DNA of 64,000 nucleotides from an uncultured Mycoplasmatota bacterium (GTDB lineage: Bacteria; Bacillota_I; Bacilli_A; RF39; UBA660), in the NCBI GenBank assembly GCA_947652325.1, contig CANTCQ010000005.1:4727-68726 (forward strand). Reading direction: 5' to 3'. Shown piece after piece: positions 13,344-36,614 of this stretch; position 1 is the stretch's first letter, and every line of letters begins with the position of its first letter. The notes beneath the pieces were generated by a model. It was not told the origin of the DNA and ran no database searches. It saw only the letters and a list, made by a program, of their open reading frames with translations. The translations under genes were made by a program, and so were the position numbers.

Positions 13344-13601
13344 ACTAACTCCTCCATTTGTCTTCCCTATTATACAATAAAAAAATATGAAATCAAAGTA
13401 CATTTCATACTAATTTTTGACAAATTTTTTTTTCCAATTTTTGTTTATCTAGGCATTTGTTTTCAAATAATACTTTTTTCTTAAATTATAGGGAATTTTC
13501 ATGATTAATTACAAGTACCTAATCATTTATAAAGTACGGTCTTTTACTTATCTCTTCTACAATTTCTAAACAAAGCTATTATATTTTCCTTTATACTTTT
13601 T

Positions 13602-14474
13602 TTACTTATTAACAGAAACTCTATAATCTAAAATCTTTTCTTCAGTAAAAGTATATTTATTATTGTTGATATCCACTATTTGATAAACTCTTTTTTCATC
13701 TTCGTTTACACTTTGATTACATGATTTTATTTCACTTGTAATATTATTTTCAAATATGTATGCTTTAAAATTTTCTAAGGAAGAAAAATTAGTTATTAAA
13801 GAATATGCGGTTTCTAATTCGTTATATACTTTCCAAATAAAATCGGAAATATACATAGAGCATATACTTGTATAATCTATTACGTCAATTTGCCTTATTT
13901 TATTGTCGTTATTAAAAAATATTTCTTTTTCTTTATTTTTTGTTTTTATAAAACTTTTTTCGTCTAAAGGAGAGTTTAATATACTTAAACTCATGGTCAT
14001 ATTTTCATAATCTACGAAAAGTAAATAATAAGCTTTTTCTTGAACAATTGTTGTTTTTTCATAGCCTTCATTCACAATTTTTCCTTCTGTATAATAAACT
14101 TCTACTTTATCGTTTATGCTTAAATATTTGGTTAATTCTGCTTGGTAAATATCATTTTGGTTATAAAATTTTATAGAATTAAGAAGGGTCGTTCTATTGA
14201 TATTTTTTTCTTGTTTATAACTTGTATCTAAAACGTTCAAAATTGCTTCTGTATTATTCTCTATTGTATTATTTATAAAATTATTTATATTTTTATTTAC
14301 AAAGAAAAATATATTATAATTGTTTACTATCGTAAATGTATTGTTTTCTTCTATAATTAAATCATCTTTCTTTTCTTTTTTATAAATATAAACACTGAAA
14401 ATTACTACGATGATTAAAAAAATTATCATTACAATTCCTAATTTATATACATCTTCTTTTCCAATTTTATTCAT
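13602..14474 (-). CDS. membrane-anchored protein, positional analogue of VirB8/TcpC-type channel components
   Basis: Single N-terminal TM plus a ~250-aa external domain. It sits directly after the wall hydrolase, as Orf13/TcpC does in Tn916/pCW3-type systems. The functional assignment is positional only. Confidence 0.35.
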   Translation of the reverse strand: MNKIGKEDVYKLGIVMIIFLIIVVIFSVYIYKKEKKDDLIIEENNTFTIVNNYNIFFFVNKNINNFINNTIENNTEAILNVLDTSYKQEKNINRTTLLNSIKFYNQNDIYQAELTKYLSINDKVEVYYTEGKIVNEGYEKTTIVQEKAYYLLFVDYENMTMSLSILNSPLDEKSFIKTKNKEKEIFFNNDNKIRQIDVIDYTSICSMYISDFIWKVYNELETAYSLITNFSSLENFKAYIFENNITSEIKSCNQSVNEDEKRVYQIVDINNNKYTFTEEKILDYRVSVNK

Positions 14475-18390: not shown

Positions 18391-18950
18391 TCTGGCATCA
18401 CCGTTCCTAATGTTGTTGGCTGTCCCCCATTAAAGAAATTATCAATAAGCATACGTAAATCATTATTTGATACTTGTGTCGCATTTAAACTACAACTTGC
18501 TAAATTGCTAATTAAATTATGAATTCGTTTTTGAACGATTTCAAGTTTCTTTTCTTTAAATAAAATAAAGTATTCTGTATCTACTACACTGTACTCAGCA
18601 CTCATAAACATATTGGCTTTATTAATATCTTGCATAATTAATTTTCGTATGGCAGAACTTGTTGAATTGTTATATAAGATTTGTAATTGTGATAAATAGG
18701 CATTGATATCTACAGGCCTATCTGCCACAATCAACCAAAATTCATAATCAATTGTATTGTAAAAATTTCTTAAATTATAAATAACATTGTCTTGTGTGTC
18801 TTTATCTAAAATAAATATATTTTTAGGGGCAACTTTTACTCCTGTCACATATTCTCCTGAATCAAGTTGTATCATCCCATTCATAATTTGTTTGATTGGA
18901 ACCCAATCTTCTGTATACTTACTTACAACATTTTTTTTCTTATTTGCCAT
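18387..18950 (-). CDS. VirB4 N-terminal-domain-like protein (separate ORF)
   Basis: EDWVPIKQIMNGMIQLDSGEYVTGVKVAPKNIF resembles the N-termini of Gram-positive VirB4 proteins. Its TGA overlaps the ATG of the ATPase ORF (ATGA). Confidence 0.55.
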   Translation of the reverse strand: MANKKKNVVSKYTEDWVPIKQIMNGMIQLDSGEYVTGVKVAPKNIFILDKDTQDNVIYNLRNFYNTIDYEFWLIVADRPVDINAYLSQLQILYNNSTSSAIRKLIMQDINKANMFMSAEYSVVDTEYFILFKEKKLEIVQKRIHNLISNLASCSLNATQVSNNDLRMLIDNFFNGGQPTTLGTVMPE

Positions 18951-19251
18951 CTCTTATACACCAGCCCTTCCAATAAAATCTTTTTCTTTTAATAAAAAAT
19001 AATATTATATTTGTTAATAATTGTAACACGTTATGATAATTTGGAACTGGCAGTACTAAGAATGCAGAAAGTAATGCTGGTGATAATATTAGTAGTAATG
19101 ACCCTATTTCTACTTTGTTATTAAATATAAATAACAATGTTAATGTAATAGTACAGCCTATTCCAAAAATAATTAAATCAATAGGGGTAAAAAAACCTAA
19201 AATCATCATTGATTTTTTGGAATTGGCTGGTATTAAATAATTTTGATTCAT
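18940..19251 (-). CDS. VirB3-like small membrane protein (PrgI/TcpE type)
   Basis: 103 aa with two TM helices. N-terminal YLIPANSKKSMMILGF and C-terminal KRKRFYWKGW follow the PrgI/TcpE pattern. It lies immediately upstream of VirB4. Confidence 0.6.
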   Translation of the reverse strand: MNQNYLIPANSKKSMMILGFFTPIDLIIFGIGCTITLTLLFIFNNKVEIGSLLLILSPALLSAFLVLPVPNYHNVLQLLTNIILFFIKRKRFYWKGWCIRDGK

Positions 19252-19317: not shown

Positions 19318-20499
19318 CTATTTTTTATTTTCTTGTTCTTTTAAAATTTTAGCATTCAATTCTGTACGCAATTTTCTATTTGCATTTTCAATAGCGTCAT
19401 TTCCATCAAACAATTTACTTACATTGCCACTTGTAATGAAATCATTGATTTTTTGTGATGCAGCAGCATTTGCAATCTCTAAATTATTCATAGCATCATT
19501 TACTTTAGTATTACTTCTGTCAACATTTCGTAAAATGCTATTATAATTCAATGATAATTTAGTTCTATATGTAGTAATTGCACTCATTAAATCTCCATCA
19601 TATTTAGTCATTTCTAATGTTCCATCATCACTTATTCCAGCAACAATATCTTTTTGTAGTTGTTTTTCTAAATCAACTTTTGCTTGTTGCAATTTACGAA
19701 GTGTTTCAGCATCTATTCTATATCTACCATCCATGGTTTTACCATGCTGTTGTGCATAGGCAATCTCATTTTCTATATCTGCTAAATTATCATAATATTG
19801 ACCCCAAGCGGTTGTTACTCCAGATGTAGCAGTACGTTTTGCTTTTTGCTTTTCCATAATTGCTTTAGCTCTATCAGCAACGGCTTTACGCGCGTCAGCT
19901 ATTTCTTGTGCTCTTGCTTGTTCAGCTTTTATTTGTTCTCCAGAAGATATTCCTGCCCAACTAGCCAAAGCCTTTAGTGTATCATTAACATGACCTTGCA
20001 TCGCTCCTGGTATTCCTCCATGCGTAGCTCGATAGTTTTCTCTTTTATCACGTGCTGTTGTGGCTGCTTGTGCTGCTTGTCCTGCAGCGGTACGCATATC
20101 TTTAAAATTTTTAGCAGAAAAACCACTTTTTATGCTTCTAATTCCTCCACTTACACCACCAGCTGGTATACTTACTATTCCTCCTGTACCATGAAAAGCA
20201 GTTGAAACTAAAGCTCCTCCAAATGTTTTTATTTTATTACCAAATCCCTGTGCATTTCTAAATCGGTTCCAACTCGCAGCTGACTTTCCAAGTCCATGCG
20301 TTAAATTTCGGATAGCTGCAGTTGTAGCACCTCCTAAAACAGCAGCAGCTCCAAAGGCTCCTCCTGCTGCTAATTTTCCACCAATTCCTAATTTCATATT
20401 ACTGGAGTCAATTCCTATAACATCCCCAATAAGTTTTGGAGCTTGTTTAGCAAAAGCAAAAAGTCCCATAACTACTATCACCTTTTCAAAGCCATTCAT
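19318..20499 (-). CDS. Gly/Ala-rich plus coiled-coil protein, possibly a detached TrbL/VirB6 C-terminal region
   Basis: The ATG at 20499 follows a GAAGGTGA RBS, and the track's longer N-terminus overlaps the upstream gene. Gly/Ala-rich first half, coiled-coil second half. Confidence 0.6.
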   Translation of the reverse strand: MNGFEKVIVVMGLFAFAKQAPKLIGDVIGIDSSNMKLGIGGKLAAGGAFGAAAVLGGATTAAIRNLTHGLGKSAASWNRFRNAQGFGNKIKTFGGALVSTAFHGTGGIVSIPAGGVSGGIRSIKSGFSAKNFKDMRTAAGQAAQAATTARDKRENYRATHGGIPGAMQGHVNDTLKALASWAGISSGEQIKAEQARAQEIADARKAVADRAKAIMEKQKAKRTATSGVTTAWGQYYDNLADIENEIAYAQQHGKTMDGRYRIDAETLRKLQQAKVDLEKQLQKDIVAGISDDGTLEMTKYDGDLMSAITTYRTKLSLNYNSILRNVDRSNTKVNDAMNNLEIANAAASQKINDFITSGNVSKLFDGNDAIENANRKLRTELNAKILKEQENKK

Positions 20500-20522
20500 A
20501 TAATCACCTTCTTTTTTTAAAA

Positions 20523-21398
20523 TTAAAATATTGCTTGTGCAAGAAATACCACACCAAACATTACAAACAAACGAATAAATACTTCCATATAAGTTGCAAT
20601 GGTTGCTTTTATCCAATTATCAAAAACCGATTTCTTTTCGGGTATAATAAACATTAAAATTGGTATAGGCGCAATTATTTGGTAAAATGCAAGTTTGGCC
20701 ACACGAATTCCTAAATCAATGCAAAATGATATTAAAACATATATTAAAAATAAACCACAAGCTGTTGCAACTAAAGGAGTGTATTTAACTCCATTTTCTC
20801 CTTCTTTTACTTCTTCTATCATAATTGTAATATCAGTAAAACTTCCATTTCTCATAATTGCCTCTCGAATACCATTCTCACCACTCCAATTTACTCCATC
20901 TTTACTCTGAGTTCCTTCTGGTATCACTAAAAAAACTTCTAAAATATTCAAAGCTGTTTCATAACCAATTTTATCAACAGAAGGAGTATCTCCTTTGCTT
21001 CCAAATAACAATTTTTCTATAACATGCTCTGATATTATTAAATTTTGCAATTTAAAGGCATAATCAAATATGACAGGTACTATTCCTAATAGCACTATAG
21101 ATATTATACAGTTTTTGACTATTTTCCCAGCACCTTTATTTATATTGTCAGGATCTACAATCGCTTTTAACAACGCACTGGCTACAAAAAAAAGCATAAC
21201 AACTCCAATAACAACTTCTACTCTATCAGCAATTTCTTTATATAAATGTTGTTGTATTAATTCTTCACTTGCGAGGAAAGTAAAACTATTAAATAGTTGA
21301 GCAATTACCCAATAAACAATACTATCAATAAAAAGAAAAACACCTGTTAAACCAAAATCAAATACATTAAAAATTTTAGCGTCTATTAATGTTATCAT
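20523..21398 (-). CDS. polytopic membrane protein, TrbL/VirB6-like
   Basis: 291 aa with 5-6 predicted TM helices and a central external loop. Its position between pilin-like genes and VirB3/VirB4 fits a VirB6 analogue. Confidence 0.5.
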   Translation of the reverse strand: MITLIDAKIFNVFDFGLTGVFLFIDSIVYWVIAQLFNSFTFLASEELIQQHLYKEIADRVEVVIGVVMLFFVASALLKAIVDPDNINKGAGKIVKNCIISIVLLGIVPVIFDYAFKLQNLIISEHVIEKLLFGSKGDTPSVDKIGYETALNILEVFLVIPEGTQSKDGVNWSGENGIREAIMRNGSFTDITIMIEEVKEGENGVKYTPLVATACGLFLIYVLISFCIDLGIRVAKLAFYQIIAPIPILMFIIPEKKSVFDNWIKATIATYMEVFIRLFVMFGVVFLAQAIF

Positions 21399-21413: not shown

Positions 21414-22448
21414 CTATTTAATATTACAAGTTCCAAATTCAATTCCAGCCATGTGTAATAAAAACTCTATTATTGTTGGCAAAACAAATACCAAAACTCC
21501 TATTATTAATCTTTTTAACAACTTATTAGTTGCTTTTTTTATTTCTGATTCATCATGTGCTGATATAGATTTTATAAAATCTACAATCGATAAAGCAATA
21601 ATTAAAATGGGAACAGCAAATTTTATTAATTTCCAAATTTCTTTTAAAAAGTCTCCAAAAGGTCCTTGAAATATTCCATTACAATCTAAAGGACCAGTTT
21701 CTATTTCGACTGGTGGAAGTGGAGTATATGGTTCATCCCCTTCTATTCCGTTTATTCCCGAGTAATTATTGTCAATATTACCACCAGAGTCTAAAATTTC
21801 ACATTCAAGTCTGCCACCTCTAAATTCAGTACATTGATAATATATATAAGTAGGACATTTAATAGTTGCTGTTCCATTATAAAAATGTGCTCCACTACTA
21901 TTTGATAATTTACAAAGTGGTTTTGAAGAATCTGATATACATAAAAATGCTGGCCTATAAGTACGTCCATCTTCTGATTTGACTTTAAAAGTAATTTTAT
22001 CTGAATTATAAATACCTTCATATGTACAACTTGTATCAGAATGTTCTACTAAAACTACTTGAGGCATTCCAATTATATTTCCCGAAGATAATTGCTCCGT
22101 TAATAAAGTCCCCTCTGTTTCACTGCATTCTCCTACTCTTGGCACATTTCCTATGCATTCTCTAAAAGAACTATATATTTTATTTCCTTCTATAGACCCA
22201 TGATAAAAAGAAATAATTGGACAAGAATTTTCTTGTTCTGCTTTTATTTCTTCTCCTTCAGCTATAGAAATATCAATATTTGCTATTATTTTATCAAAAA
22301 AATTTGCATTATCTTTTTTTTCTAAAATAATGGTTTCTCCATTCCAATTATAAGAGCATCTAGTTGATGCTTCTACATCTTGATAAAGAAAAAACAAAAA
22401 AAATAAAGTTAAACTAAATAATATGTATATCTTCTTTTTCATAAACAT
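21414..22448 (-). CDS. secreted Cys-rich protein with C-terminal VirB2/TrbC-like two-helix module
   Basis: Signal peptide, about 14 Cys in the ectodomain, and a C-terminal FAVPILIIALSIVDFIKSISAHDESEIKKATNKLLKRLIIGVLVFVLPTIIEF shared with two paralogues. Confidence 0.65.
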   Translation of the reverse strand: MFMKKKIYILFSLTLFFLFFLYQDVEASTRCSYNWNGETIILEKKDNANFFDKIIANIDISIAEGEEIKAEQENSCPIISFYHGSIEGNKIYSSFRECIGNVPRVGECSETEGTLLTEQLSSGNIIGMPQVVLVEHSDTSCTYEGIYNSDKITFKVKSEDGRTYRPAFLCISDSSKPLCKLSNSSGAHFYNGTATIKCPTYIYYQCTEFRGGRLECEILDSGGNIDNNYSGINGIEGDEPYTPLPPVEIETGPLDCNGIFQGPFGDFLKEIWKLIKFAVPILIIALSIVDFIKSISAHDESEIKKATNKLLKRLIIGVLVFVLPTIIEFLLHMAGIEFGTCNIK

Positions 22449-22521
22449 CCCTTCTTTTTTTGTTTTCTTTTATTATAACATTAATTTACTTTTTATGTAT
22501 AAATTAAAAAAGTAAACATAT

Positions 22522-23652
22522 TTAATCACAATTTCTAATATCTAATACGCAAATCCGACAATTCTTAAATGCATTTTCATCATTACCTGCTATTTTAAAT
22601 ACATAATTTATAATTGTGGGTAATAAAAAAATAACTATTCCTATAATAATTCTAATAATTAATATTTTAGAAGTTTTTTGAATGGCATCTTGATTTGAAG
22701 AAACGATAGCTTTTCCAAAATCAATTGAACCAAATATTATAAGTAAAATTGGAACCATAATTTTAACTATGTATAGCCCATATCCTAAAAATTTTACAGT
22801 CTTGTGTACGCCTTCTTCGTTACAAAAATTATTAAAGTCTATATTCGTATCTAAATTCAAATTGGTATCTGCATCTTGGGCTGCATTCTTTATAAATTCA
22901 TTTGCCTTGTTCACAGCTTCTCTATATTCTTCTATTACTATGCTTTTTCCACTAAAATAACCTTGATTTATATAATTATCAACTCTAGTATTCCAAACGG
23001 AAGTTGCTGAAGAGATCTTGTTTTTTAATTCTGCAATCATCTTTTGACACTTTTCTGCTCCAACAGCTTTACATTCATCCATTTTAAAATTATTTACTAA
23101 ATCATTTAATCCTCGGGTATAAGACTGTATTTCCTCTATAACTTCTTCTACATCCGAATTTGGATTAGTACTTGTATTATTTTTATTTTGTAGTTCTTGT
23201 TCAACCTTCTTTATATATTCATTTGCCTTATTAGCAGCTTCTTTATAGCTGTTGATTACAATATTTTGACCTGTAAAGTATCCTCGATTTACAGCATCAT
23301 TTACTTTTGCATCCCAACTGAATATTCTATCTTTTAATGTTTGAACTAAATTTTGACATTGTGTTATATCTGCATCTTCTAGTTTTGTACACCTATCTAA
23401 TGGAAAACTATTTATAGCATCATTTATTCCTCTAGTATATGATTTTATTTCTTCTTCTATTTCTTTCTGCTTTTCTTCTAATGTTTGTGCTATTTTTATG
23501 ACTGGCGCTTTTTTTACGTTCTCTTTATTTAAATTAATTATTATAGCTTTTTTATTATTTATTTCATAATTATTTTTTAATGTTATGTCTTTTGCGTTTA
23601 CAAAACTTATGCTTACTAAAAATACTATTATTGAAAATATTACCTTTTTCAT
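22522..23652 (-). CDS. secreted protein with internal duplication and C-terminal VirB2/TrbC-like two-helix module
   Basis: Signal peptide, two ~90-aa repeats, and a C-terminal IMVPILLIIFGSIDFGKAIVSSNQDAIQKTSKILIIRIIIGIVIFLLPTIINY. Confidence 0.65.
   Translation of the reverse strand: MKKVIFSIIVFLVSISFVNAKDITLKNNYEINNKKAIIINLNKENVKKAPVIKIAQTLEEKQKEIEEEIKSYTRGINDAINSFPLDRCTKLEDADITQCQNLVQTLKDRIFSWDAKVNDAVNRGYFTGQNIVINSYKEAANKANEYIKKVEQELQNKNNTSTNPNSDVEEVIEEIQSYTRGLNDLVNNFKMDECKAVGAEKCQKMIAELKNKISSATSVWNTRVDNYINQGYFSGKSIVIEEYREAVNKANEFIKNAAQDADTNLNLDTNIDFNNFCNEEGVHKTVKFLGYGLYIVKIMVPILLIIFGSIDFGKAIVSSNQDAIQKTSKILIIRIIIGIVIFLLPTIINYVFKIAGNDENAFKNCRICVLDIRNCD
22876..23463 (-). repeat. intragenic tandem duplication (protein level, two ~90-aa units)
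   Basis: Unit 1: IKSYTRGINDAINSFPLDRCTKL...NRGYFTGQNIVINSYKEAANKANEYIK. Unit 2: IQSYTRGLNDLVNNFKMDECKAV...NQGYFSGKSIVIEEYREAVNKANEFIK. Confidence 0.75.
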
Positions 23653-23700
23653 AAAATCACGTCCATTTTTTTATATATTTATTATAACAGTAAAATTCTA

Positions 23701-23731
23701 AAATAAAAAGGTAAAATGTTTTATTTTACCT
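23701..23731 (-). terminator. rho-independent terminator overlapping the stop of the 376-aa gene
   Basis: On the minus strand: AGGTAAAAT-loop-ATTTTACCT followed by TTTTTATTTT. The stop codon lies in the left arm. Confidence 0.55.
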
Positions 23732-24856
23732 CACAATATAAGGGTCTTCTTTTGTTCCTACTCCACTTTTATATAAAACATCACTACTTAATGCTATGAC
23801 ATACCTCAAAATTGAATTTCCGGAAGTATATTCTGAATATACTTCTCCACTGTAAGAAACAGAGTAAGCAGAATACGTATCTTTCATATCTGCAGTCATT
23901 GTCCACCACTTATAATCATTGTCTGTTAAATAATTATAATTTTGGCATTCTCTACTTAAAGAAGTACTACATAAAGCATCCAAACTAGCATTCATAAAAT
24001 CATATATTGGTAATAGACCTATGTCTTGGTCTTTTATTATTTCATTACATTCTAAACTTCCATCTCGGTTTGTACTTGCTTCTCCTCTTTTACCAATACA
24101 TAAATCAAATTTTGATAAATATTCTTTGTTTTCTAAATATTTTTTTTGGAATAAATCTTTTGTAGTAATTAGTGCTCTACTTAAAGCGTAATTGTTTATT
24201 CCATAATTTGATTCCATCTCGGAATTATATCTATCATCCCAAGTTCCATAAATATTATCATCTTCTGTTTCTGTTAAAATTATATGAATATTGTTATTTC
24301 TGTCAATCTTTACTATTCTCCAAAGTTCATTTGCAAAAGATATATAATTATTGGGATTCTGGCCTCTAAAAACAAGCTCATTATTCATTTCATAAAGTCC
24401 TTCTCCTACTTGAGATATTTTATTATTATTTTTAATTGTATCCATAAACTTTTCTGTATGAAAGTTATTACAAGTTAAATATGCTTGATATTTATAATCA
24501 TTTTCTATAACATAATCTACTAAAATATCGGCTGTACATGAAGAATCTTTTACATATTTTTTTAAATCTTTTATATATTTATTTTCTATTAAAGTATTTG
24601 TACTTACTGCAATTGTTGGATTAGTACTCGTAGGTCTTATATCTGGATTTTCCTCTAAATACTTTACAGTTGCTTGCTCTAAAATTTCTTCCAATTTTTC
24701 ATAACTCATATTTGTTCCTACAAATTTTACGGCAATTGCTATAACAATAATAATAATCAGCATAATCAAAGCTGCACTTCCAAAAAAATTTACTTTTTGT
24801 TTGTTGTTATTATAAAAAGATTTTAATTTTTCTATTTGTTCTTTCATTTGTTTCAC
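23726..24856 (-). CDS. membrane-anchored extracellular protein, unknown function
   Basis: One TM helix near residue 30. The C-terminal KWWTMTAD...LRYVIALSSDVLYKSGVGTKEDPYIV pattern is common in clostridial surface proteins. Confidence 0.55.
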   Translation of the reverse strand: MKQMKEQIEKLKSFYNNNKQKVNFFGSAALIMLIIIIVIAIAVKFVGTNMSYEKLEEILEQATVKYLEENPDIRPTSTNPTIAVSTNTLIENKYIKDLKKYVKDSSCTADILVDYVIENDYKYQAYLTCNNFHTEKFMDTIKNNNKISQVGEGLYEMNNELVFRGQNPNNYISFANELWRIVKIDRNNNIHIILTETEDDNIYGTWDDRYNSEMESNYGINNYALSRALITTKDLFQKKYLENKEYLSKFDLCIGKRGEASTNRDGSLECNEIIKDQDIGLLPIYDFMNASLDALCSTSLSRECQNYNYLTDNDYKWWTMTADMKDTYSAYSVSYSGEVYSEYTSGNSILRYVIALSSDVLYKSGVGTKEDPYIVR

Positions 24857-24883
24857 CTATGTTGTTATGATACCATAGCCATT

Positions 24884-24906
24884 AAAAAAAAGCAATTTAC
24901 ATTGCT
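24884..24906 (-). terminator. short hairpin plus T8 directly after the 131-aa pilin-like gene
   Basis: On the minus strand: AGCAAT-GTAA-ATTGCT followed by TTTTTTTT, starting right after the TAG stop. Confidence 0.5.
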
Positions 24907-25302
24907 CTATTTCCATGCATTACTGGCTTTTGACTTACACGTATTTCCGTTTGGACTTGTAATACAATCTTTACAAACATTAAAGTCAGCTTGTGCATTG
25001 TTTGTAAAATCTGTTATTATAGTCATTATAAAACCAATTATGGTTGGGAGTAAAAATATAAAAACGGATGCAATGGCTCTTTTCACTAAAGCAGTAGTTG
25101 CTTTTTTTATTTCATCATCTTTACTAGCTATTACTGCTTTACCTAAGTCAATCATCCCAAAAATAATTAATAAAACTGGAATAGCAATTTTAAAAATTAA
25201 TAAAATATACCCGATTATTTGCCAAAGATTTGCTGTTCCATTACAAAACCCATTAGCTGTACCTATACCTGGCTCTCCGGTCATTGTTAAAAATAAATCC
25301 AT
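24907..25302 (-). CDS. VirB2/TrbC-like two-helix pilin candidate
   Basis: 131 aa. The core IAIPVLLIIFGMIDLGKAVIASKDDEIKKATTALVKRAIASVFIFLLPTIIGF is two hydrophobic helices joined by a short charged loop. Confidence 0.55.
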   Translation of the reverse strand: MDLFLTMTGEPGIGTANGFCNGTANLWQIIGYILLIFKIAIPVLLIIFGMIDLGKAVIASKDDEIKKATTALVKRAIASVFIFLLPTIIGFIMTIITDFTNNAQADFNVCKDCITSPNGNTCKSKASNAWK

Positions 25303-25332: not shown

Positions 25333-25361
25333 ATTTTATCTGTTTAATTCTATAATGTCAA
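25333..25361 (-). promoter_or_regulatory. internal sigma-A-type promoter upstream of the 131-aa pilin-like gene
   Basis: On the minus strand: TTGACA (25356-25361), 17 nt, TAAAAT (25333-25338), then an AAGGAGG RBS. Confidence 0.55.
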
Positions 25362-25364
25362 GTT

Positions 25365-26360
25365 TTACGATTTAAATATGTTAAATAGTTTACTATTTTT
25401 TTGCTCTTCTCCTGAATTTTCATCAAAACGAGCAAATCCCAAGTTGATTAAGAATTCTTCTATTTCTTTGTGATGGTCTAATTTGTCATCTAAATACGGC
25501 ATATTAAAGAAGACTTTACTTTTACTCTCATACTCAAAATCTTTAACATCTCTTCCATTTAATATACTTCTATTTAATACAATTTTTTTGTCTTTTAATT
25601 TTTCAAATGTTCGTTTGTCTTTACGAATCAGCTTATTAAGTTTAATAAGTCCTGGTTCTATTAAATAGATAACTTCGGTACATGCACTAATACTTCCTCT
25701 ATCGTTTAAATCAACCAATATGACTTCTACATCACTATTAGTGGCAATAAAAGCTGGCAAGTCTAAACTTGATGTTGTTCTTAAAGTTTTATCATTAAAA
25801 TAAATGAAATCATGTTCATCTACTTCAACTGCCATAACATTGTATTTGCGCGCTAGTTGTTTTTTTAGTAAATAGGTAAGTGTTGTAGAACCAGCGTGAT
25901 TGGTTACATTTTTAATGCCAATAACACGTAGTCCTAATTTGTCGTAATCCCCTCCACCAGAATCTTCTGTTTCTGCAGCATTTAATTGATGGTATTGTGC
26001 TACATCTTTATAAGTATTTGGATTATTAATTAAAAATTTTACAGCATCAATATTTCGCGTAAAATTATAAATTCCCATCGAAATTAAGCTAGATAAAAAT
26101 TTGGGTGAATTTACTACTTCTGAATCATCTAATAAGATAATAATATTACTTACATCCATACTTACCGATAAGTTTTGTAAAGTTGCTATATCTTGATAGT
26201 TTTGTAATGCTGTAATATCCAAAATCATTTTGTTGTAATAAAAGTTAGTAAATTGATTCACTAAATCCTCTACTTCAAACTCTCCATTAATGCTTTTTAT
26301 GATATCTATATCAAGTGTAGCAAGTAGTGATTGATATTTATTTGATACGATTACGTTCAT
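25365..26360 (-). CDS. CpaE/TadZ-like ParA/MinD-fold protein with degenerate Walker A
   Basis: N-terminal receiver-like region, then VIGIKNVTNHAGSTTLTYLLKKQLARKYNVMAVEVD aligned to the ParA pattern (xKGGxGKTT...DxD). Both Lys residues are missing. Confidence 0.55.
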   Translation of the reverse strand: MNVIVSNKYQSLLATLDIDIIKSINGEFEVEDLVNQFTNFYYNKMILDITALQNYQDIATLQNLSVSMDVSNIIILLDDSEVVNSPKFLSSLISMGIYNFTRNIDAVKFLINNPNTYKDVAQYHQLNAAETEDSGGGDYDKLGLRVIGIKNVTNHAGSTTLTYLLKKQLARKYNVMAVEVDEHDFIYFNDKTLRTTSSLDLPAFIATNSDVEVILVDLNDRGSISACTEVIYLIEPGLIKLNKLIRKDKRTFEKLKDKKIVLNRSILNGRDVKDFEYESKSKVFFNMPYLDDKLDHHKEIEEFLINLGFARFDENSGEEQKNSKLFNIFKS

Positions 26361-26363
26361 AAT

Positions 26364-26852
26364 TTATTCCTCCCTTGCGATTAAATTATCTGCGGGATTT
26401 ACAATATCCCCAGTCGCCCCATTTATATCAAAGGTAAATATGTCTCCTAAAACAGGTAAATTAAAATAGAAAAACATATTTACTTTATAAAAAACTTTTC
26501 CTTCATGATTACTTGAAGGGGAAGCTATTTTTCTTATACAATAATAATATTTTTTACGATTATTCGTGACAAGTTCTATTGTATTATTATCTAAATCTGC
26601 TACTCCATAAGAATCAACTTCGCAGGTTTTCATAATGTTATAACGATTTGTTTTTAGATAATTATTGATAATTCCTAGTGTTCCATCATTTCCGGTTGTT
26701 ATGCCTTCTCTTTTTTCAATAATCGACAACATTTCATTTTTTACTTTAAATGCTTTGGTGTAATTTAAAGAAAGGGCTAAAAATGCCACAAATATAAGCA
26801 TAAAGATAATCACAAGTTGTGTTATCCAAGTACCACCAATAGCTTCTCTCAT
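26364..26852 (-). CDS. minor pilin-like protein (paralogue 2)
   Basis: MREAIGGTWITQLVIIFMLIFVAFLALS N-terminus, a ~130-aa globular part with a Cys pair, and a 4-nt overlap with its paralogue. Confidence 0.55.
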   Translation of the reverse strand: MREAIGGTWITQLVIIFMLIFVAFLALSLNYTKAFKVKNEMLSIIEKREGITTGNDGTLGIINNYLKTNRYNIMKTCEVDSYGVADLDNNTIELVTNNRKKYYYCIRKIASPSSNHEGKVFYKVNMFFYFNLPVLGDIFTFDINGATGDIVNPADNLIAREE

Positions 26853-27325
26853 CTTTGCATCACCCCACTATTTTTCGAGTGACTTAAAATTTTTGTATCC
26901 CCCGAAATTTTAAAGTTAAAGACACTTCTAAATATAGGTAAATCCAGTTGATAAAATACAACTACACGATAATAACTCATATCTGGTAATTCTGCATTGT
27001 TTCTAGTGGCTTGTTTAGCTATACAAAATGCGGCATTACGACTATCAAGTTGCCCTTCTCTATTAAAACCACTATATCCTTCTGGACATCTTCCAGTTGT
27101 TCTATAAGATGCTTTTTTTAAATAATCGACAATTTTTAAAATAGCAGGGTCATTTTCGGGACTCGCCAAATCTGCTCCTTCTTCTCTTTCAATTGCTTTG
27201 ATAATTGTATTTTTTACATTAAATGCCTTGGACTGGTTAATTGATAAGCACATATATCCTGTAAATAGTAGGACAAAAAAGATTACGATTTGAAATATCC
27301 AAGTACCACCGATTGCCTCTCTCAC
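26849..27325 (-). CDS. minor pilin-like protein (paralogue 1)
   Basis: MREAIGGTWIFQIVIFFVLLFTGYMCLS N-terminus and a globular part with a Cys pair. Confidence 0.55.
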   Translation of the reverse strand: MREAIGGTWIFQIVIFFVLLFTGYMCLSINQSKAFNVKNTIIKAIEREEGADLASPENDPAILKIVDYLKKASYRTTGRCPEGYSGFNREGQLDSRNAAFCIAKQATRNNAELPDMSYYRVVVFYQLDLPIFRSVFNFKISGDTKILSHSKNSGVMQR

Positions 27326-27338
27326 TCTATCACCTCAA

Positions 27339-27578
27339 TTAGCCTTTCCAAGCACATTTAAAGTCTGGTCCTTCTTGATGTCCGTTTTTATAATATTTGC
27401 AATCAACCATTCCATCTTGAAGTGTATTTTTATCACATATAGCATCACTACATTTGTTGTTTGCAATAAACGTATTTTTAATGCTTGGCCATAGAATAGC
27501 AAAGAAAAAGACCGATAGGATTGCTACCGCTATAACGATTACAACTGTCATATTTAGTTCTCCTGTCGCCTCTTTCAT
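27339..27578 (-). CDS. small Cys-rich pilin candidate (paralogue 2)
   Basis: 79 aa: MKEATGELNMTVVIVIAVAILSVFFFAILWPSIK, then a 45-aa tail with 4 Cys. Confidence 0.6.
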   Translation of the reverse strand: MKEATGELNMTVVIVIAVAILSVFFFAILWPSIKNTFIANNKCSDAICDKNTLQDGMVDCKYYKNGHQEGPDFKCAWKG

Positions 27579-27601
27579 AGTTTTAAACTCCTATTCTAAA
27601 A

Positions 27602-27853
27602 TTATCTAGTTACTGTTCCATTACCCGTATTTGGACAAGTAATTGTATCTGTTGAACCATCATCTTTAATGTATGTACATGTACATGTATCCGTTGTACA
27701 AGTACTTGGACAAGTTGCGTTTGCGCAAAGTGTATTTCTATTAATACTGCTTTTTATACCTGGCCATACAAATGCATAAAAGAATGCAGCGACGGCAGCA
27801 ATAGCAACAACAGTTACAACGGTCATATTTAATTCTCCAGTTGCTTCTTTCAT
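27602..27853 (-). CDS. small Cys-rich pilin candidate (paralogue 1, probable major subunit)
   Basis: 83 aa: MKEATGELNMTVVTVVAIAAVAAFFYAFVWPGIK, then a tail with 6 Cys. It has its own near-consensus promoter and an AGAGGAGG RBS. Confidence 0.6.
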   Translation of the reverse strand: MKEATGELNMTVVTVVAIAAVAAFFYAFVWPGIKSSINRNTLCANATCPSTCTTDTCTCTYIKDDGSTDTITCPNTGNGTVTR

Positions 27854-27881
27854 TAATATATACCTCCTCTATTATATTTTT

Positions 27882-27910
27882 ATTATAGCTTTTTTTCTTT
27901 AATATATCAA
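27882..27910 (-). promoter_or_regulatory. near-consensus sigma-A promoter in front of the pilin genes
   Basis: On the minus strand: TTGATA (27905-27910), 17 nt, TATAAT (27882-27887). Confidence 0.6.
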
Positions 27911-27926
27911 TATTTATTCCTGTTTC

Positions 27927-28715
27927 TTACAGTCCCATTAACATTAATACTGCAAATATTAAAAGAACCATAACTCCTAAACCTGTCGTAATTAACATAC
28001 TCATGGTTTTAGATTCCATTTTTTCAAGTCTTTCCTTATATCTTGTATCTCTAGCTTTTTGTTGCAAATTGGAAATGGTTTTCGAAAATGCAAGCAATTG
28101 GTCTTGTTTATGTTCTTGTCTTCCTAAACTCAAACGATATAGCAAACGCATCATCCGCATAGAATCTCTTACAGGGTATTCTCTTGCAAAATTTACATAA
28201 GGGTCTATTTTATCATTACCTGCATTGATTTCATTGATTAACTCTTGCAAACCTTCTCTAAATATAGGAGGTGCATCCGTAATAGATTTTCCAATTGCAA
28301 CAGGTACGGTATAATGTTGAATTAAGATTTCTAAACTTTTTAAATAGTGTGGTAACATCGAATTAATTTCATGTAAATGAGCTTTATAATATTTTTTAAT
28401 ATTGAAATAATCCAATTTAAATACTAAAAATCCTCCTAAAAAACAGAATAAAATGGTTACATAGTTTAGCTTTGAAATAAAACAAAATACTAACACCACA
28501 ATCATAATTAATCCATTTCGAATTCTTTTATTAAATAGGATATCTGCATTAACCCCTTCTCCATATTTTGCTCTTACATAAAAGTCCCAATCCTCTTCCT
28601 TTAATTTACGAAAATAAACTTCATTATCCGCAATAAAACGATTGGCGCTGATTCTTCCTGTGTAGTTCATAACATAAAGAATAATAATCCCAATAATTAA
28701 TATTTCAATTGCCAT
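27927..28715 (-). CDS. TadC-like type II secretion system F-family platform protein
   Basis: N-terminal TM helices, a cytoplasmic helical domain (LPHYLKSLEILIQHYTVPVAIGKS...) and a C-terminal TM, paired with a second F-family gene. Confidence 0.65.
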   Translation of the reverse strand: MAIEILIIGIIILYVMNYTGRISANRFIADNEVYFRKLKEEDWDFYVRAKYGEGVNADILFNKRIRNGLIMIVVLVFCFISKLNYVTILFCFLGGFLVFKLDYFNIKKYYKAHLHEINSMLPHYLKSLEILIQHYTVPVAIGKSITDAPPIFREGLQELINEINAGNDKIDPYVNFAREYPVRDSMRMMRLLYRLSLGRQEHKQDQLLAFSKTISNLQQKARDTRYKERLEKMESKTMSMLITTGLGVMVLLIFAVLMLMGL

Positions 28716-28716
28716 G

Positions 28717-29610
28717 TTATTCTACCCCCACATCTGCATTATAGTATTTCTCTCCACTTAATAAGAAATAACTATTAATGATAATAATCATATGAAGAAT
28801 AATTTTTACATACCAAACCTCTAAAAGTTCAATATAACTGTCCGTTCCGAGTAAAAATTGCATTGCCATCACAAGTAAAAACAGGGCAAGACCAAATGTA
28901 ATAAATCTTTTATGGAAATTTTTACGGTCGGCTTGGTCACGATAAACACCTTCTACTAAAGCATCAATATCTTGGCTCATATTTTCCAAAGCTTCTCCTG
29001 AATCCTTTGCTCCTTCTTTTGTGATTTGTAAAAAAAGTTGGTTCATATTTTTTACCATATAAAACGGATATTTTTCATTAAAGAATTCAATAGATTCGTC
29101 AATGGTTCCATTTTGATAAGACATTTCAATCATAGTTTTTACATCTTGCAAAACTGGGTCTTCTAAAATACCAGAATCTCTTACTCCTTCAAGACTTTTA
29201 ACAAAACTTTGTGTCGTTGTAAATTCCATAATGACATTGGTTGTATAAATTTGAATTTGTTCAAATATGAATTCACTGTATATTTTTTGATAGCGTAAAT
29301 ATGCAAGATAAGGAATAAAGGCAACAGCGATTAAAGCATAAATAATGGCTATAACAATATTATAGAAATAAAGATAAGAAATCCCTCCTGCAATACCTGC
29401 AAACATCACAATTTGACTTGTGTATTGTCTTACCGTAAATTCTTGCCCTAAGGATTTTACTTTTTCTCTTACTTCCTTATAACTGTAGGGTGCAAATTTT
29501 TCGTATGTGTCACGCACTTGCGTAATAAAGAAACGATATACATTTTCACCATTGTTTTGCCTGTAAGAAATAACATATATTCCTATGATACATAAAATTA
29601 TTAATTCCAT
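28717..29610 (-). CDS. TadB-like type II secretion system F-family platform protein
   Basis: Same topology as its neighbour. The ATG at 29610 follows an AGGTG RBS. Confidence 0.65.
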   Translation of the reverse strand: MELIILCIIGIYVISYRQNNGENVYRFFITQVRDTYEKFAPYSYKEVREKVKSLGQEFTVRQYTSQIVMFAGIAGGISYLYFYNIVIAIIYALIAVAFIPYLAYLRYQKIYSEFIFEQIQIYTTNVIMEFTTTQSFVKSLEGVRDSGILEDPVLQDVKTMIEMSYQNGTIDESIEFFNEKYPFYMVKNMNQLFLQITKEGAKDSGEALENMSQDIDALVEGVYRDQADRKNFHKRFITFGLALFLLVMAMQFLLGTDSYIELLEVWYVKIILHMIIIINSYFLLSGEKYYNADVGVE

Positions 29611-29630
29611 GTATAGCACCTACTTTCTTC

Positions 29631-30782
29631 TTATATGTTTTGTGCCATCGGATTTTTTGGCATGATTGGAGTTGTATTAACATTTAGGTTAGTATTTATC
29701 ATTCCTGTAGAGACTCCCATTGGCTTTTTTGTTCTAAATATATTTTCAGGAAGTATAATTCCTTGGATAGATAAATAATCTCTTAAATGTTTGGTTGGAT
29801 TATTTAAAGACATTTTTCCATCCATTGATTTTTGGTAGATAGTATTAGTTTTTGGATTGTTTTGTTCATCTACATAAAATTCACAGATTTCCATAATTTC
29901 TCTTTGAAATCTTCCTAATTCTTTGCTCATATATCCTTTTACATAAACTCCAATTTGCACATAACGATGAACCGTTGTTAAAAATTGTTCTACATCTTGA
30001 TTTGTTTCTAATAGACTGTACATACGCATTGGTATACTTGATGCTTTATCCGAATGAATAGTAGACAAAATATGATGTCCAGAAGATATGGAATTTCGAA
30101 CAGCAAGAACTGCCTCGGCACTACGAACTTCGGATAACAATATCCAAATGGGATTTTGCCTCATACAAGTAACTAATACATCTGTATAGGATGCAATATT
30201 ATTGGTTTTCATAGCTACTATATCACGGTGTGGAAAAATTCTATCCAAATGAAGTTCTAATGTATCTTCAATGGATATAATTTTTTCGTCTTCCTTTGTA
30301 GTACTCGCTAGGTATTTTACGAGTTCTGTTTTCCCAGAACCTGTTTCTCCACTTACAATAATATTGGCATGACCTTGTACACATTGTAATAAAAAATCAA
30401 GCAAATCTTCTGAAACGTATTGTTCATTTAATAATTTTTCTCGATTCAAGCGAATTTTTGCAGGTGTTTTCCGAATCAAACAAGCAATTCCATTGGTGGC
30501 AATCGAATCGTGTACAAAATTCAAACGTAATTCTGTTGATTCTGCATCTAAAAAAGGATGTGCCATATTGAATGTTTTTCCCATAACATTAGAGCATTGA
30601 AAAGCAAGTTTTTCCATTAAAGCATTGTTTATATCAGGTCGTTCTACTTTAAAAACACCACGAGAAAGGGTTTTTAACCAAACTTGTCCACCATTGCTAT
30701 AGGAAATATCTGTAACATCATCTTGTCTTAAAAATTCATCGATTGGTCCAAAGTCTAATTGCGAAAATATAGCATCATCCAT
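29631..30782 (-). CDS. CpaF/TadA (VirB11-superfamily) secretion ATPase
   Basis: Walker A GETGSGKT, Asp box IISIEDTLEL, Walker B PIWILLSEVR and His box GHHILSTIH. Confidence 0.85.
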   Translation of the reverse strand: MDDAIFSQLDFGPIDEFLRQDDVTDISYSNGGQVWLKTLSRGVFKVERPDINNALMEKLAFQCSNVMGKTFNMAHPFLDAESTELRLNFVHDSIATNGIACLIRKTPAKIRLNREKLLNEQYVSEDLLDFLLQCVQGHANIIVSGETGSGKTELVKYLASTTKEDEKIISIEDTLELHLDRIFPHRDIVAMKTNNIASYTDVLVTCMRQNPIWILLSEVRSAEAVLAVRNSISSGHHILSTIHSDKASSIPMRMYSLLETNQDVEQFLTTVHRYVQIGVYVKGYMSKELGRFQREIMEICEFYVDEQNNPKTNTIYQKSMDGKMSLNNPTKHLRDYLSIQGIILPENIFRTKKPMGVSTGMINTNLNVNTTPIMPKNPMAQNI

Positions 30783-30816
30783 AATTTTCTTTCCCCTCTC
30801 TTTGTTCTTTTATTCT

Positions 30817-31665
30817 TTATTGTCCACTATTATTGTTATTATTATCATTATTGTTATTATCTTGTGGTAAATTAGGCATTATATTTTGAGGAATAACAGC
30901 AGCTTTTGATAAAATGAAATCTTTAATGTAATCACTTGAAACGTTTGTATCTCCTGGATTTTCACTATAAGATGCATTTCTTGGAACTGGAATTATTTCT
31001 ACTGATGCCCCTGTAATATAGCCAGCTTTCATAAGTAGGTCATACATATCGTTTGGTACTGCAAATAATAATTCTGATGGTGTACGACTTTCTACAGTAG
31101 TTTCAAATACATGATTTCCTTGGCTGTCTTTCACGGCAAGTACTTCAATACTTTCGATTAATTTTCCAAACATAATCTTATTGGTTTCGTCTACTCCTTT
31201 AAAATACAAATCAATGTAGTTTCCAGGGTAAATAGAATTTCCATATGTTGTATGTTGATTCACTCCTAAACTAAAAATTGTATATTTATCTGGAATGTCT
31301 GCAAATGCACTGTCTGGCATTTCGTTGCCAGCTAAAATTTGTGAGGAATAGAACATACTGTTTGCTGGAATTGTTGTTCCAAAAGCAACATAGTTGTTAA
31401 TAAGCTGATTTGCGTTCGTTATTAAGTTTTTGCTATTTTTTACAACACTACTTGATACTTCCATGTATCCAATCATATCACTCGTAATCAATGTACGAGA
31501 AGATAGTTCCTCTTTTGCATAAGGTACTGTTACTGGTGTTGTTGCTTGTTTCACACGATAATTGTATCCTATGTATAAAACCAATATACCAAGTAACACC
31601 CCTAAAATTGTTACAGTATTTTTGTTTGCCAAAAATCTTTTTACTGTAGTTAAAATATTTCCCAT
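30817..31665 (-). CDS. CpaB/RcpC-like pilus assembly protein
   Basis: N-terminal TM, a SAF-like segment, and a beta-clip pattern IFSLGVNQHTTYGNSIYPGNYIDLYF...IESIEVLAVKD (cf. PGDxVDV...VxVLAV). Asn-rich tail. Confidence 0.65.
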   Translation of the reverse strand: MGNILTTVKRFLANKNTVTILGVLLGILVLYIGYNYRVKQATTPVTVPYAKEELSSRTLITSDMIGYMEVSSSVVKNSKNLITNANQLINNYVAFGTTIPANSMFYSSQILAGNEMPDSAFADIPDKYTIFSLGVNQHTTYGNSIYPGNYIDLYFKGVDETNKIMFGKLIESIEVLAVKDSQGNHVFETTVESRTPSELLFAVPNDMYDLLMKAGYITGASVEIIPVPRNASYSENPGDTNVSSDYIKDFILSKAAVIPQNIMPNLPQDNNNNDNNNNNSGQ

Positions 31666-31681
31666 TTTTATTTCCTCCTAT

Positions 31682-32452
31682 TTATAATAATGTATTTCTA
31701 GCAATTTCTAGAAAAGCATTTTTTTCTGATTCAGTAAATGTTATTCCTTGCCATCTTTGCCAATCAGCTAAAATTTCATTTAAATAATGTGTCGAATTAT
31801 TTTTATATTCTCCATATAAATCATTTTTTATATTAAAATTATTCCTACACCATCCATTAGAATCTTTTGGACAATTTATATATTTTGATTGATACCAATT
31901 TTGTGCAGTAATAGACAATAAATCTGTTCTATTTGGAACTCTGGAATTTGAATTTTGATTATTATTTTGATTTGTCGAATTGTTGTTATTACTGCTCCAA
32001 TTATTACTATTCAAATCATTATCACCACTAGCGTTACTAGAATTACTTCCTTGTGCGCTCAATTCTAAAATTGCATCCACTTTATTTACAATATCAAATG
32101 TTGTTTGGTCTCCTGCTATAATGAATGTTTTTGTTTTGCTAGCTACCCTTACACTTACTTTTGGTGGTGCTTCGTAAATTCCATAAAAAGAGATTTCATA
32201 TGTATTTAAACTTACATTTTCTGAAAATCTTCTTAAAAAAGATTCAATAAATTTTTCTCTATCTATCTTTAGTTCTCCATATTCGCGATAATATCCATAA
32301 TTTACAGCATCTACCATTGCAGCTTCTGTAACCTCTTGAATCAAATAGTAATCTTCTGTATTTTGCGTTGTCACATTAGATATTAACATCATAATAACAA
32401 CGACAAATACTCCTAACATGATTAACCAATAACCCCAATATGTTTCTTTCAA
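31682..32452 (-). CDS. larger pilin-like protein with Asn/Ser-rich linker
   Basis: MKETYWGYWLIMLGVFVVVIMMLISN N-terminus related to the other pilin-like leaders. A ~110-aa domain is followed by an N/S-rich region and a C-terminal domain. Confidence 0.5.
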   Translation of the reverse strand: MKETYWGYWLIMLGVFVVVIMMLISNVTTQNTEDYYLIQEVTEAAMVDAVNYGYYREYGELKIDREKFIESFLRRFSENVSLNTYEISFYGIYEAPPKVSVRVASKTKTFIIAGDQTTFDIVNKVDAILELSAQGSNSSNASGDNDLNSNNWSSNNNNSTNQNNNQNSNSRVPNRTDLLSITAQNWYQSKYINCPKDSNGWCRNNFNIKNDLYGEYKNNSTHYLNEILADWQRWQGITFTESEKNAFLEIARNTLL

Positions 32453-36161: not shown

Positions 36162-36614
36162 ATGAAAAATAAAAATAGGAATATTTACCTTTATAGTCTT
36201 ATCATTATTGTTATTTTATTAGGTGCTTTTTTAATTTATAAACTTGCATTTGCTCAAAAAAATACAGGTACGAGATTACTAAATATCCAAGTTTCTGAAT
36301 TAGAAGAAAAAATAAATGCTCAAGAAAACTTTGTTTTGGTAATTAGCCAAACTGGGTGTAGTCATTGCGAACAATATTTGCCAGAGCTTGATAGAGCTTT
36401 ACAAGAAGTGAATTTTAATGCCTATGTATTAAATATAACGGGACTTGATAAAACAAATTCTGATACACTTGCCAAATACGTGAATTTTTCAGGAACTCCC
36501 ACAACCATATTTTTTCATGAAGGAATAGAAAAAACGACATTAAATCGTATTGTTGGGTATGCTTCTAAAACAAAGATTATAGAAAGACTTAAATCATTGG
36601 GGTATGTTGATTAG
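36162..36614 (+). CDS. membrane-anchored thioredoxin-fold thiol-disulfide oxidoreductase
   Basis: N-terminal TM helix and a CxxC active site in ISQTGCSHCEQYLPEL. The size is typical of a thioredoxin fold. Confidence 0.75.
   Translation: MKNKNRNIYLYSLIIIVILLGAFLIYKLAFAQKNTGTRLLNIQVSELEEKINAQENFVLVISQTGCSHCEQYLPELDRALQEVNFNAYVLNITGLDKTNSDTLAKYVNFSGTPTTIFFHEGIEKTTLNRIVGYASKTKIIERLKSLGYVD

Follow-up and report, generated by a model that had tools for sequence, protein, structure and literature searches.

The closest known case to the locus described here comes from Patescibacteria, whose type IV secretion systems (T4SSs) carry arrays of 2 to 11 divergent VirB2-like (PF18895/PF04956) pilins beside virB4, together with TrsD and PrgI (PMC12102498, PMC12857230). 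In Ca. Southlakia epibionticum, a six-gene VirB2-like array is essential (PMC12102498, PMC12857230). A 2025 review holds that Gram-positive T4SSs lack VirB2 and VirB5 except in Patescibacteria (PMC12857230), and the Patescibacteria survey left open whether the pilins were co-opted from Gram-negative systems, because they are "absent in MPF-FATA" (PMC12857230, PMC12102498). Here we analyze a stretch of 64,000 nucleotides (the window; contig CANTCQ010000005.1 of assembly GCA_947652325.1, positions 4,727 to 68,726 of the forward strand) from an uncultured bacterium of the RF39/UBA660 lineage, in which three genes encode proteins of 131, 376, and 344 amino acids (aa) that share a C-terminal two-helix module. 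We see about an even chance that these genes form a T4SS_pilin (PF18895) array of a chromosomal Gram-positive-type T4SS and build a pilus-like structure with exchangeable heads.

The locus resembles the Patescibacteria arrays in several respects. Both belong to the same Pfam family, PF18895 (T4SS_pilin), which until now had been discussed for Patescibacteria only, and lie by virB4 in a monoderm-type T4SS with PrgI/VirB3, TrsD, and VirB6; both are chromosomal, usually have no recognizable relaxase, and occur in organisms that also have a type IV pilus system. The Patescibacteria arrays hold 2 to 11 genes with a mean identity of 25%, compared with 1 to 8 genes and about 36% here. Unlike those systems, the present one has a host from the Bacillota (uncultured gut Bacilli), contains one ectodomain-free member that is strongly conserved, is joined to a Tad-like cluster, and includes a VirD4 coupling protein and a VirB1-like hydrolase. 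Moreover, most of its members carry large Sec-exported ectodomains, which are not mentioned for Patescibacteria (PMC12102498, PMC12857230), a distinction drawn from the published descriptions and not from protein lengths. Several sequence-variable pilin copies per T4SS locus, as here, are also found in the Bartonella Trw VirB2/VirB5 arrays and among the Anaplasma VirB2 paralogues, where they are thought to widen or change the specificity for target surfaces (PMC12857230). However, the variation in Bartonella and Anaplasma resides in small pilins and separate VirB5 tip proteins, whereas here it resides in a domain fused to the pilin module. In our literature searches, no account of arrays like these turned up for Bacillota or for RF39-like gut Bacilli. 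New here are the phylum of the host, the systematic way in which the module is fused to large, variable ectodomains, and the linkage to a Tad-like cluster; an earlier note on this DNA had called the arrangement unusual for a Gram-positive T4SS, in agreement with current reviews (PMC12857230, PMC12102498).

The shared module and its family

The array lies within one long cluster at about 10.9 to 36 kb of the window, with nearly all genes on the minus strand. The window has a G+C content of about 28% and carries housekeeping genes at both ends (class I tRNA synthetases, a PBP5-type carboxypeptidase, FtsW/RodA, a MurJ-like flippase, and BacA). Three other metagenome samples contain virtually identical contigs on which an independent gene caller placed the same genes, and hence the open reading frames (ORFs) are not assembly artefacts. 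The loci in these samples are 100% identical at every gene, except for three mismatches in one gene of L082; being nearly identical, they carry no information on strain-level variation. The array comprises the following features, for which evidence is given in brackets (HMM, hidden Markov model; AF2, AlphaFold2; TM, transmembrane segment).

24907..25302, minus strand: short pilin-like protein, 131 aa, candidate major subunit (ORF; PF18895 E 6e-4)
24934..25254, minus strand: pilin-like module of the 131-aa protein, residues ~17-123 (module HMM domain 14-123, E 3e-49; alignment A2)
23726..24856, minus strand: bitopic membrane protein inside the array, 376 aa, N-terminal TM, Cys-containing ectodomain, without the pilin module (translation)
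22522..23652, minus strand: long paralogue 1, 376 aa, with signal peptide, two tandem three-helix-bundle repeats, and pilin-like module (ORF, BLASTP, AF2)
22525..22842, minus strand: pilin-like module of the 376-aa paralogue, residues ~271-376 (module HMM domain 271-376; AF2 helices 280-317 and 321-355)
21414..22448, minus strand: long paralogue 2, 344 aa, with signal peptide, Cys-rich ectodomain, and pilin-like module (ORF, BLASTP)
21417..21701, minus strand: pilin-like module of the 344-aa paralogue, residues ~250-344 (module HMM domain 250-343, E 2e-40)

Pairwise BLASTP with compositional adjustment aligned the 131-aa protein with the 376-aa paralogue (E 7e-20, 43% identity over 100 aa) and with the 344-aa paralogue (E 2e-15, 38% over 78 aa), and the two long proteins with each other (E 7e-14, 38% over 73 aa). 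The similarity extends beyond the hydrophobic stretches to the polar loop and conserved Cys residues, which argues for homology and not mere composition. The earlier note had already described three paralogues with a common C-terminal module, and the ORFs and alignments bear this out; the module does recur, but the shared unit spans about 95 to 105 aa and not the ~55 aa given there. Its N-tail contains Cys and leads into helix 1, in which a Lys and a Pro are invariant; a charged turn separates this helix from helix 2, which bears the LPTII motif, and the C-tail that follows has either one Cys or three. In the 376-aa paralogue a Cys precedes helix 1 and a CxxC...C pattern follows helix 2, and in the module of the 344-aa paralogue the hairpin is preceded by one Cys and followed by another. 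The 131-aa protein is a helical hairpin with no signal peptide and a 22-residue acidic N-tail in place of a hydrophobic leader; its residues C20, C110, C113, and C122 are invariant among relatives. The AF2 model of this protein (pLDDT, the predicted local distance difference test, 78) has helices at 24-59 and 62-96, each of about 35 residues, and two short C-terminal helices. In the 62-bp gap upstream of its gene there is a near-consensus sigma-70-type promoter (TTGACA, 17-nt spacer, TAAAAT; 25333-25361, minus strand); promoter-like and terminator sites in the region were not more numerous than expected by chance (against shuffled sequence for the promoters).

For comparison we scanned GTDB, one genome per species, with the short pilin as query and took the best 80 loci of the 402 species genomes with short-pilin relatives, together with the window. 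Almost all of the 80 carry the labels uncultured gut Bacilli, "Tenericutes," Erysipelotrichaceae, Ca. Ventrenecus, or Ca. Coprovivens; seven metagenome-assembled genomes (MAGs) among them are labeled Muribaculaceae. The module HMM found 281 module ORFs in the 80 loci and the window, 1 to 8 per locus, and all 278 of those in the 80 loci are co-oriented. The module is at the C terminus, with a median of 9 aa beyond it. Of 229 modules, 227 have at least one Cys ahead of helix 1, and 222 have one or three after helix 2. The bitopic protein inside the array has a counterpart at the same position in 25 of the 80 loci (49 to 68% identity to close relatives) and gave no Pfam, NCBIfam, or PDB match.

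Membership in PF18895 (T4SS_pilin) is, by profile comparison, well supported despite a subthreshold window copy. The 131-aa protein itself scores 20.2 bits (E 6e-4) over profile positions 2-71 of 71, below the gathering cut-off of 26.6. The same profile was matched over positions 2-71 by 28 of 28 orthologues of the short protein (51 to 76% identical to that of the window), with a best E of 1.4e-7; the 376- and 344-aa proteins gave no match at E ≤ 0.1. A search with a profile of the three modules returned 1,040 database proteins, of which the best 120 are all 105 to 149 aa long. PF18895 is a precomputed annotation on many of these proteins and also on the long relatives P0133 and P0141. The claim that the module is a secretion-system pilin module is thus supported. 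When 1.84 billion representatives were searched exhaustively with HMMER, 9,817 clusters (50% identity) passed E ≤ 1e-3 and 5,067 passed E ≤ 1e-10; their lengths are 91 to 512 aa. Among the best 150 representatives, a few have the module near the N terminus and a C-terminal extension; P0144, P0202, P0264, and P0275 show this reversed layout in which the module is followed by a long C-terminal extension, which in P0144 looked like a putative esterase.

Two of the 28 short orthologues also weakly matched CagC, the VirB2 of Helicobacter pylori (E 0.009), and this is the only link to canonical VirB2 at the sequence level. In NCBIfam the module gave only weak matches, all of them to membrane proteins of mycoplasma integrative and conjugative elements (ICEs) or of Gram-positive conjugation (Mbov_0395, a "pilin-like conjugal transfer protein," Mbov_0396, MMCAP2_0566, and MAG4940), and none came near the curated cut-offs (best E 1.6e-4; 3 to 10 of 28 members). 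For NF045849, a pilin-like protein of Mollicutes ICEs with a cut-off of 40 bits, the 344-aa protein scored 14.3 bits and 3 of the 28 short orthologues matched with a best E of 2.2e-4. The VirB4 of the window most resembles the VirB4 model of mycoplasma ICEs (E 9e-105); any relationship of the module to the membrane proteins of Mollicutes ICEs is tentative. A possible fourth copy of the module at the N terminus of the VirB6-like protein (Pfam E 0.003) was rejected after profile-profile comparison (probability 3.9%).

The predicted topology of the module is N-out, loop-in, C-out, which matches VirB2. It is constrained because the signal peptides of the long forms put the N terminus of the module outside, and by the basic charge of the loop (mean net charge +2 over 229 modules).

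Ectodomains and rates of change

The two long paralogues carry large secreted N-terminal domains, one of them Cys-rich and one duplicated, as the earlier note had proposed, and both begin with Sec-type signal peptides, as is evident from the sequence itself. Three features were delimited in the 376-aa paralogue.

23593..23652, minus strand: Sec-type signal peptide, MKKVIFSIIVFLVSISFVNA followed by KD (read from sequence)
23179..23502, minus strand: ectodomain repeat 1, residues ~51-158, three helices, 2 Cys (BLASTP, DNA repeat, AF2)
22858..23163, minus strand: ectodomain repeat 2, residues ~164-265 (BLASTP, DNA repeat, AF2)

The two repeats, of about 105 aa each, are 44% identical (E 3e-29), and a repeat is also detectable in the DNA (22874-22996 and 23195-23317). 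In the AF2 model of the 376-aa protein (pLDDT 77), two three-helix bundles are connected to the hairpin by a flexible linker; the helices of repeat 1 span residues 51-82, 93-122, and 131-158, with pLDDT mostly of about 80 to 97. The best Foldseek hits of this model were spectrin-type three-helix repeats, at nonsignificant E-values of 0.13 or more. The ectodomain showed no likeness to VirB5/TraC, with no match in Pfam and no VirB5 in the Foldseek listing. The ectodomain of the 344-aa protein contains 10 Cys and a CxY...CPxY motif; it gave no Pfam or PDB match, no internal repeat was detected in it, and among the 80 loci it has a single relative (L002, 31 to 32% identity). A common ectodomain with the 252-aa protein encoded at 35255-36013 was rejected, as only the signal peptides of the two align (E 0.02).

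Such extensions are the rule in the family. N-terminal extensions of at least 60 aa (60 to 546 aa) are present in 182 of the 281 module ORFs and fall into at least 43 BLAST clusters. A crude test scored a signal-peptide-like N terminus in 173 of these 182 long members, about 67 of which contain the CxY...CPxY motif. In P0123 and P0124, a Cys domain, a helical domain, and the module follow each other in this order; the combination of the two domain types in these relatives points to domain shuffling onto a constant module.

A comparison of the window with seven close species revealed different rates of change within the locus. VirB4 is 91 to 94% identical, TadA 88 to 94%, and TadB/C 86 to 95%; the short pilin is 57 to 71% identical, the modules of the long paralogues 43 to 66%, and the VirB6-like protein 45 to 64%. 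Each ectodomain is undetectable in six of the seven species and 31 to 32% identical in the seventh. Over the 80 loci, mean identity is 64% for the short pilins and 36% for the other modules. The machinery is thus conserved, the exposed parts are fast-evolving, and the ectodomains appear to be swapped wholesale, a pattern expected of surface-exposed determinants of specificity or adhesion. The gene order is kept across related loci: the gene of a 929-aa protein, the Tad genes, the array, and the genes for VirB6-like, VirB3, TrsD, and VirB4.

A proposed pilus-like assembly and its alternatives

The most economical reading of the locus is a T4SS_pilin array with one ectodomain-free major subunit and variable paralogues in the same assembly. 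It builds on the observed paralogy, family membership, operon position, architecture, and rate asymmetry of the three proteins, and from these we infer the following sequence of events. All members would insert into the membrane N-out, loop-in, C-out, like VirB2. The tails outside the membrane would be stapled by disulfides between the conserved Cys residues of the N- and C-tails, a possible stand-in for the head-to-tail cyclization that joins the termini of T-pilin and TrbC. VirB4 and VirB6 would extract the short protein and polymerize it into a pilus-like stalk or conduit through a cell wall opened by the hydrolase, and the long paralogues would join the same lattice via the common module, either at its tip or as scattered members along its length. 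This would expose their variable ectodomains as heads that bind targets or act as adhesins and so determine the specificity for partners.

How far does the likeness to VirB2, TrbC, and TraA extend? The short protein shares with them its small size, two long hydrophobic helices, a short basic loop, the predicted N-out/C-out topology, and a gene in a T4SS operon near virB3, virB4, and virB6. Unlike them, the module has no detectable sequence or profile similarity to this group, conserves extracytoplasmic Cys residues, is naturally fused to ectodomains of 50 to 546 aa, and occurs in a host without an outer membrane; VirB2 and TraA have a long, cleaved leader, whereas here the short form has none and the long forms have ordinary Sec signal peptides.

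Several observations weigh against a pilin array. None of the three window proteins or the 28 orthologues matched PF04956. Homology to canonical VirB2/TrbC was tested directly and could not be shown: hhalign of the short-pilin profile (A3) against nine VirB2/TrbC proteins annotated on plasmids, collected with a VirB2 query (99% identity to annotated virB2 genes), gave a probability of 1.4% (E 0.038), and alignment A2 against the same nine gave 0.1%. A PDB profile search with the short-pilin profile was empty, and Foldseek of the 131-aa model against PDB gave nothing below E 2.8; the 30 hits listed were generic helical hairpins and ABC-transporter helices, with no pilin among them, be it of F, pED208, pKM101, the T-pilus, or archaeal Ced, and a bare hairpin discriminates poorly in such a search. 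Of the VirB2/TrbC likeness proposed in the earlier note, the predicted topology is borne out, whereas homology could not be shown. The label "VirB2-like" rests on the Pfam family and its published VirB2-like treatment, on the two-helix architecture, on the predicted topology, and on gene position. The PF18895 score of the window's short protein is subthreshold, and this protein lacks the long cleaved leader typical of VirB2 and TraA. A two-helix hairpin is a generic membrane anchor, a domain of 250 to 500 aa is hard to fit into a VirB2-type lattice, and the adjoining Tad-like cluster already offers a pilus. The disulfide stapling and the topology are predictions, and we know of no filament seen for any Bacillota T4SS.

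In the main rival explanation, the module would be a T4SS membrane subunit or anchor that never polymerizes outside: the hairpin would dock by VirB6/VirB4 in the membrane, like the pilin-like subunits of T4SSs without a pilus, the ectodomains would be tethered adhesins or a wall-spanning scaffold, and the short protein would be a channel or assembly subunit. We regard this as a serious possibility, though not a probable one. It is backed by the same family and context evidence as the T4SS_pilin array, large N-terminal domains fit a pilin lattice poorly, and nothing positive points to a filament; with its two three-helix bundles, the ectodomain of the 376-aa protein forms a rod in the model that would suit a spacer, and pilin subunits are required even by T4SSs that make no pilus (PMC12857230). 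However, a plain anchor would not need a strictly conserved two-helix module of 100 aa in which polar and Cys positions are invariant, and it would not need a dedicated, well-conserved ectodomain-free paralogue in every locus; other proteins of the same locus use single-pass anchors. The module is still less likely to be a generic two-TM anchor unrelated to secretion (a holin, a bacteriocin-immunity protein, or a lineage-specific surface anchor) whose PF18895 matches reflect hydrophobic composition. The subthreshold score of the window protein, weak matches to seven-transmembrane (7TM) receptor families that amount to compositional background, and the unrelated helical hairpins returned by Foldseek would all be accommodated by such an anchor. 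Nevertheless, all 28 orthologues match the same 71-position profile end to end, and the array has a fixed place inside a T4SS operon across about 80 species. The earlier note had named holins and bacteriocin immunity proteins as families to look for, and neither was matched at E ≤ 0.1 in Pfam or NCBIfam by the three proteins or the 28 orthologues (PHROGs was not searched). We consider this explanation highly improbable.

A different assignment would make the array part of the neighbouring Tad/type-IV-pilus-like system, as accessory or minor pilus components. The short gene directly follows the CpaE-like gene, and the Tad-like cluster is kept upstream of the array in 36 of the 70 assessable loci. 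On the other hand, in L027, L056, L064, and L073 there is no Tad gene in the ~10 kb upstream of the array, and a VirB6-like gene lies directly after the last module gene in 44 of 50 assessable loci, with a median gap of 15 bp. The three proteins have no class III prepilin-peptidase site and match no type IV pilin family in Pfam or NCBIfam, and every family match of the module is to T4SS or ICE proteins. Membership in the Tad-like system is very unlikely in our view.

The same pilin family, arrayed in a Bacillota T4SS with a PrgI-TrsD-VirB4-VirB6 layout, bears directly on the origin of the Patescibacteria pilins, and this question thereby becomes testable by VirB4 phylogeny. In addition, the conserved pilin module serves dozens of surface domains, unrelated to each other and fast-evolving, as their common socket, a design not described in the searchable T4SS literature. 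If displayed on a filament, the ectodomains would be the determinants of partner specificity of a widespread, unstudied contact system in the animal gut, and the array would offer a ready-made scaffold for surface display.

The neighbouring T4SS and Tad-like genes

The genes around the array encode the remaining parts of a T4SS and a Tad-like system.

19318..21398, minus strand: VirB6-like polytopic membrane protein, split into 291 aa (20523-21398) and 393 aa (19318-20499) (synteny, topology)
18940-19251, minus strand: PrgI/VirB3-like protein (Pfam PrgI E 0.02, below cut-off)
18387-18950, minus strand: TrsD-like ORF for the VirB4 N-domain, 187 aa (NCBIfam VirB4_plasma E 3e-15)
16606-18390, minus strand: VirB4 ATPase, 594 aa (NCBIfam VirB4_plasma E 9e-105; Pfam P-loop_TraG, AAA_10; PF26593 TraC-like precomputed)
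14484-16583, minus strand: cell-wall hydrolase with M23 peptidase and lysozyme domains (Pfam)
13602-14474, minus strand: bitopic protein, no assigned family (translation)
10986-13403, minus strand: VirD4-type coupling protein (NCBIfam conju_CD1115, 301.8 bits against a cut-off of 250)
25365..32452, minus strand: Tad/type-IV-pilus-like cluster, adjoining the short pilin gene on its upstream side, with CpaE-like, two TadE-like, two small pilin-like, two TadB/C-like, TadA/VirB11-like ATPase, CpaB-like, and DUF5411 proteins (Pfam, NCBIfam)
36162..36614, plus strand: membrane-anchored thioredoxin-like protein, CSHC motif, N-terminal TM (Pfam Thioredoxin_2 7e-8, Thioredoxin 9e-8)

The label "VirB6-like" reflects position and topology, as the protein gave no family match above threshold in Pfam or NCBIfam. 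In most related species it is a single ORF, mostly of about 680 to 1,000 aa, and in L002 it is split too. The second ORF in the window has its own ribosome-binding site (GAAGGTGA) and an ATG at 20499, and the split is identical in three independent assemblies and hence not a sequencing error. VirB4 is likewise encoded by two ORFs, which overlap by 4 nt, and the same split occurs in related loci where these genes were found; it corresponds to the TrsD plus VirB4 arrangement reported to be typical of Patescibacteria and the pGO1 subclass. The ATPase of the Tad-like cluster is about as close to VirB11 (E 1.7e-30) as to TadA (E 1.3e-27). Four small proteins of this cluster have unusual prepilin-like N termini (MKEATGELNMTVV twice and MREAIGGTWI twice), and no prepilin peptidase was recognizable for it. 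PDB sequence searches with unknown proteins of 290 and 308 aa gave nothing useful, and the proteins encoded at 9615-10541 and 13602-14474 have no assignment.

No relaxase, integrase, transposase, or tRNA gene was recognized in or beside the island of about 25 kb (10986-36013), although VirD4 is present. We therefore rejected a typical ICE. A plasmid origin was also rejected, with no megablast match of an 11-kb region and no tblastn match of the short pilin among 72,556 plasmids. The locus looks chromosomal and not like a typical ICE.

Could the island work as a whole? The supercluster of about 25 kb, comprising the Tad-like pilus, the array, VirB6/VirB3/TrsD/VirB4, the hydrolase, and VirD4, might be a chromosomal, relaxase-less organelle for cell-to-cell interaction in gut Bacilli with apparently small genomes. 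It would share its ancestry with the essential T4SS of Patescibacteria and be the first VirB2-type pilus of a member of the Bacillota, with interchangeable ectodomain pilins as specificity heads. As a whole we hold this proposal to be tentative and rather unlikely. If it were true, the Patescibacterial pilin arrays would not have been borrowed from Gram-negative systems; a branch of the monoderm (MPF-FATA) T4SS would be their original home.

The start of the cluster (32469-36013, minus strand) encodes two proteins, one of 252 aa that is exported and anchored by a C-terminal TM, and the 929-aa protein. The latter has no family match, is only 32 to 50% identical to its counterparts in close relatives, and is thus another fast-evolving component, probably an exposed one. 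Divergent from this end of the locus, the thioredoxin-like protein is followed by a CAAX/Rce1-type intramembrane protease (36162-37338, plus strand). The thioredoxin-like CSHC protein is a candidate oxidoreductase for the many extracytoplasmic Cys residues of the locus, and together with the protease it may take part in the maturation of Cys-rich exported proteins.

A gene for a CotZ-like spore coat protein lies near the locus (38280-38720, minus strand) and suggests that the host is a spore-former, or the descendant of one, with a normal cell wall. In L064, a Bacilli MAG, the related locus is on a single contig of 1.04 Mb (JAFYYX010000001.1), which hints at small genomes in these organisms, as in the Patescibacteria with similar arrays.

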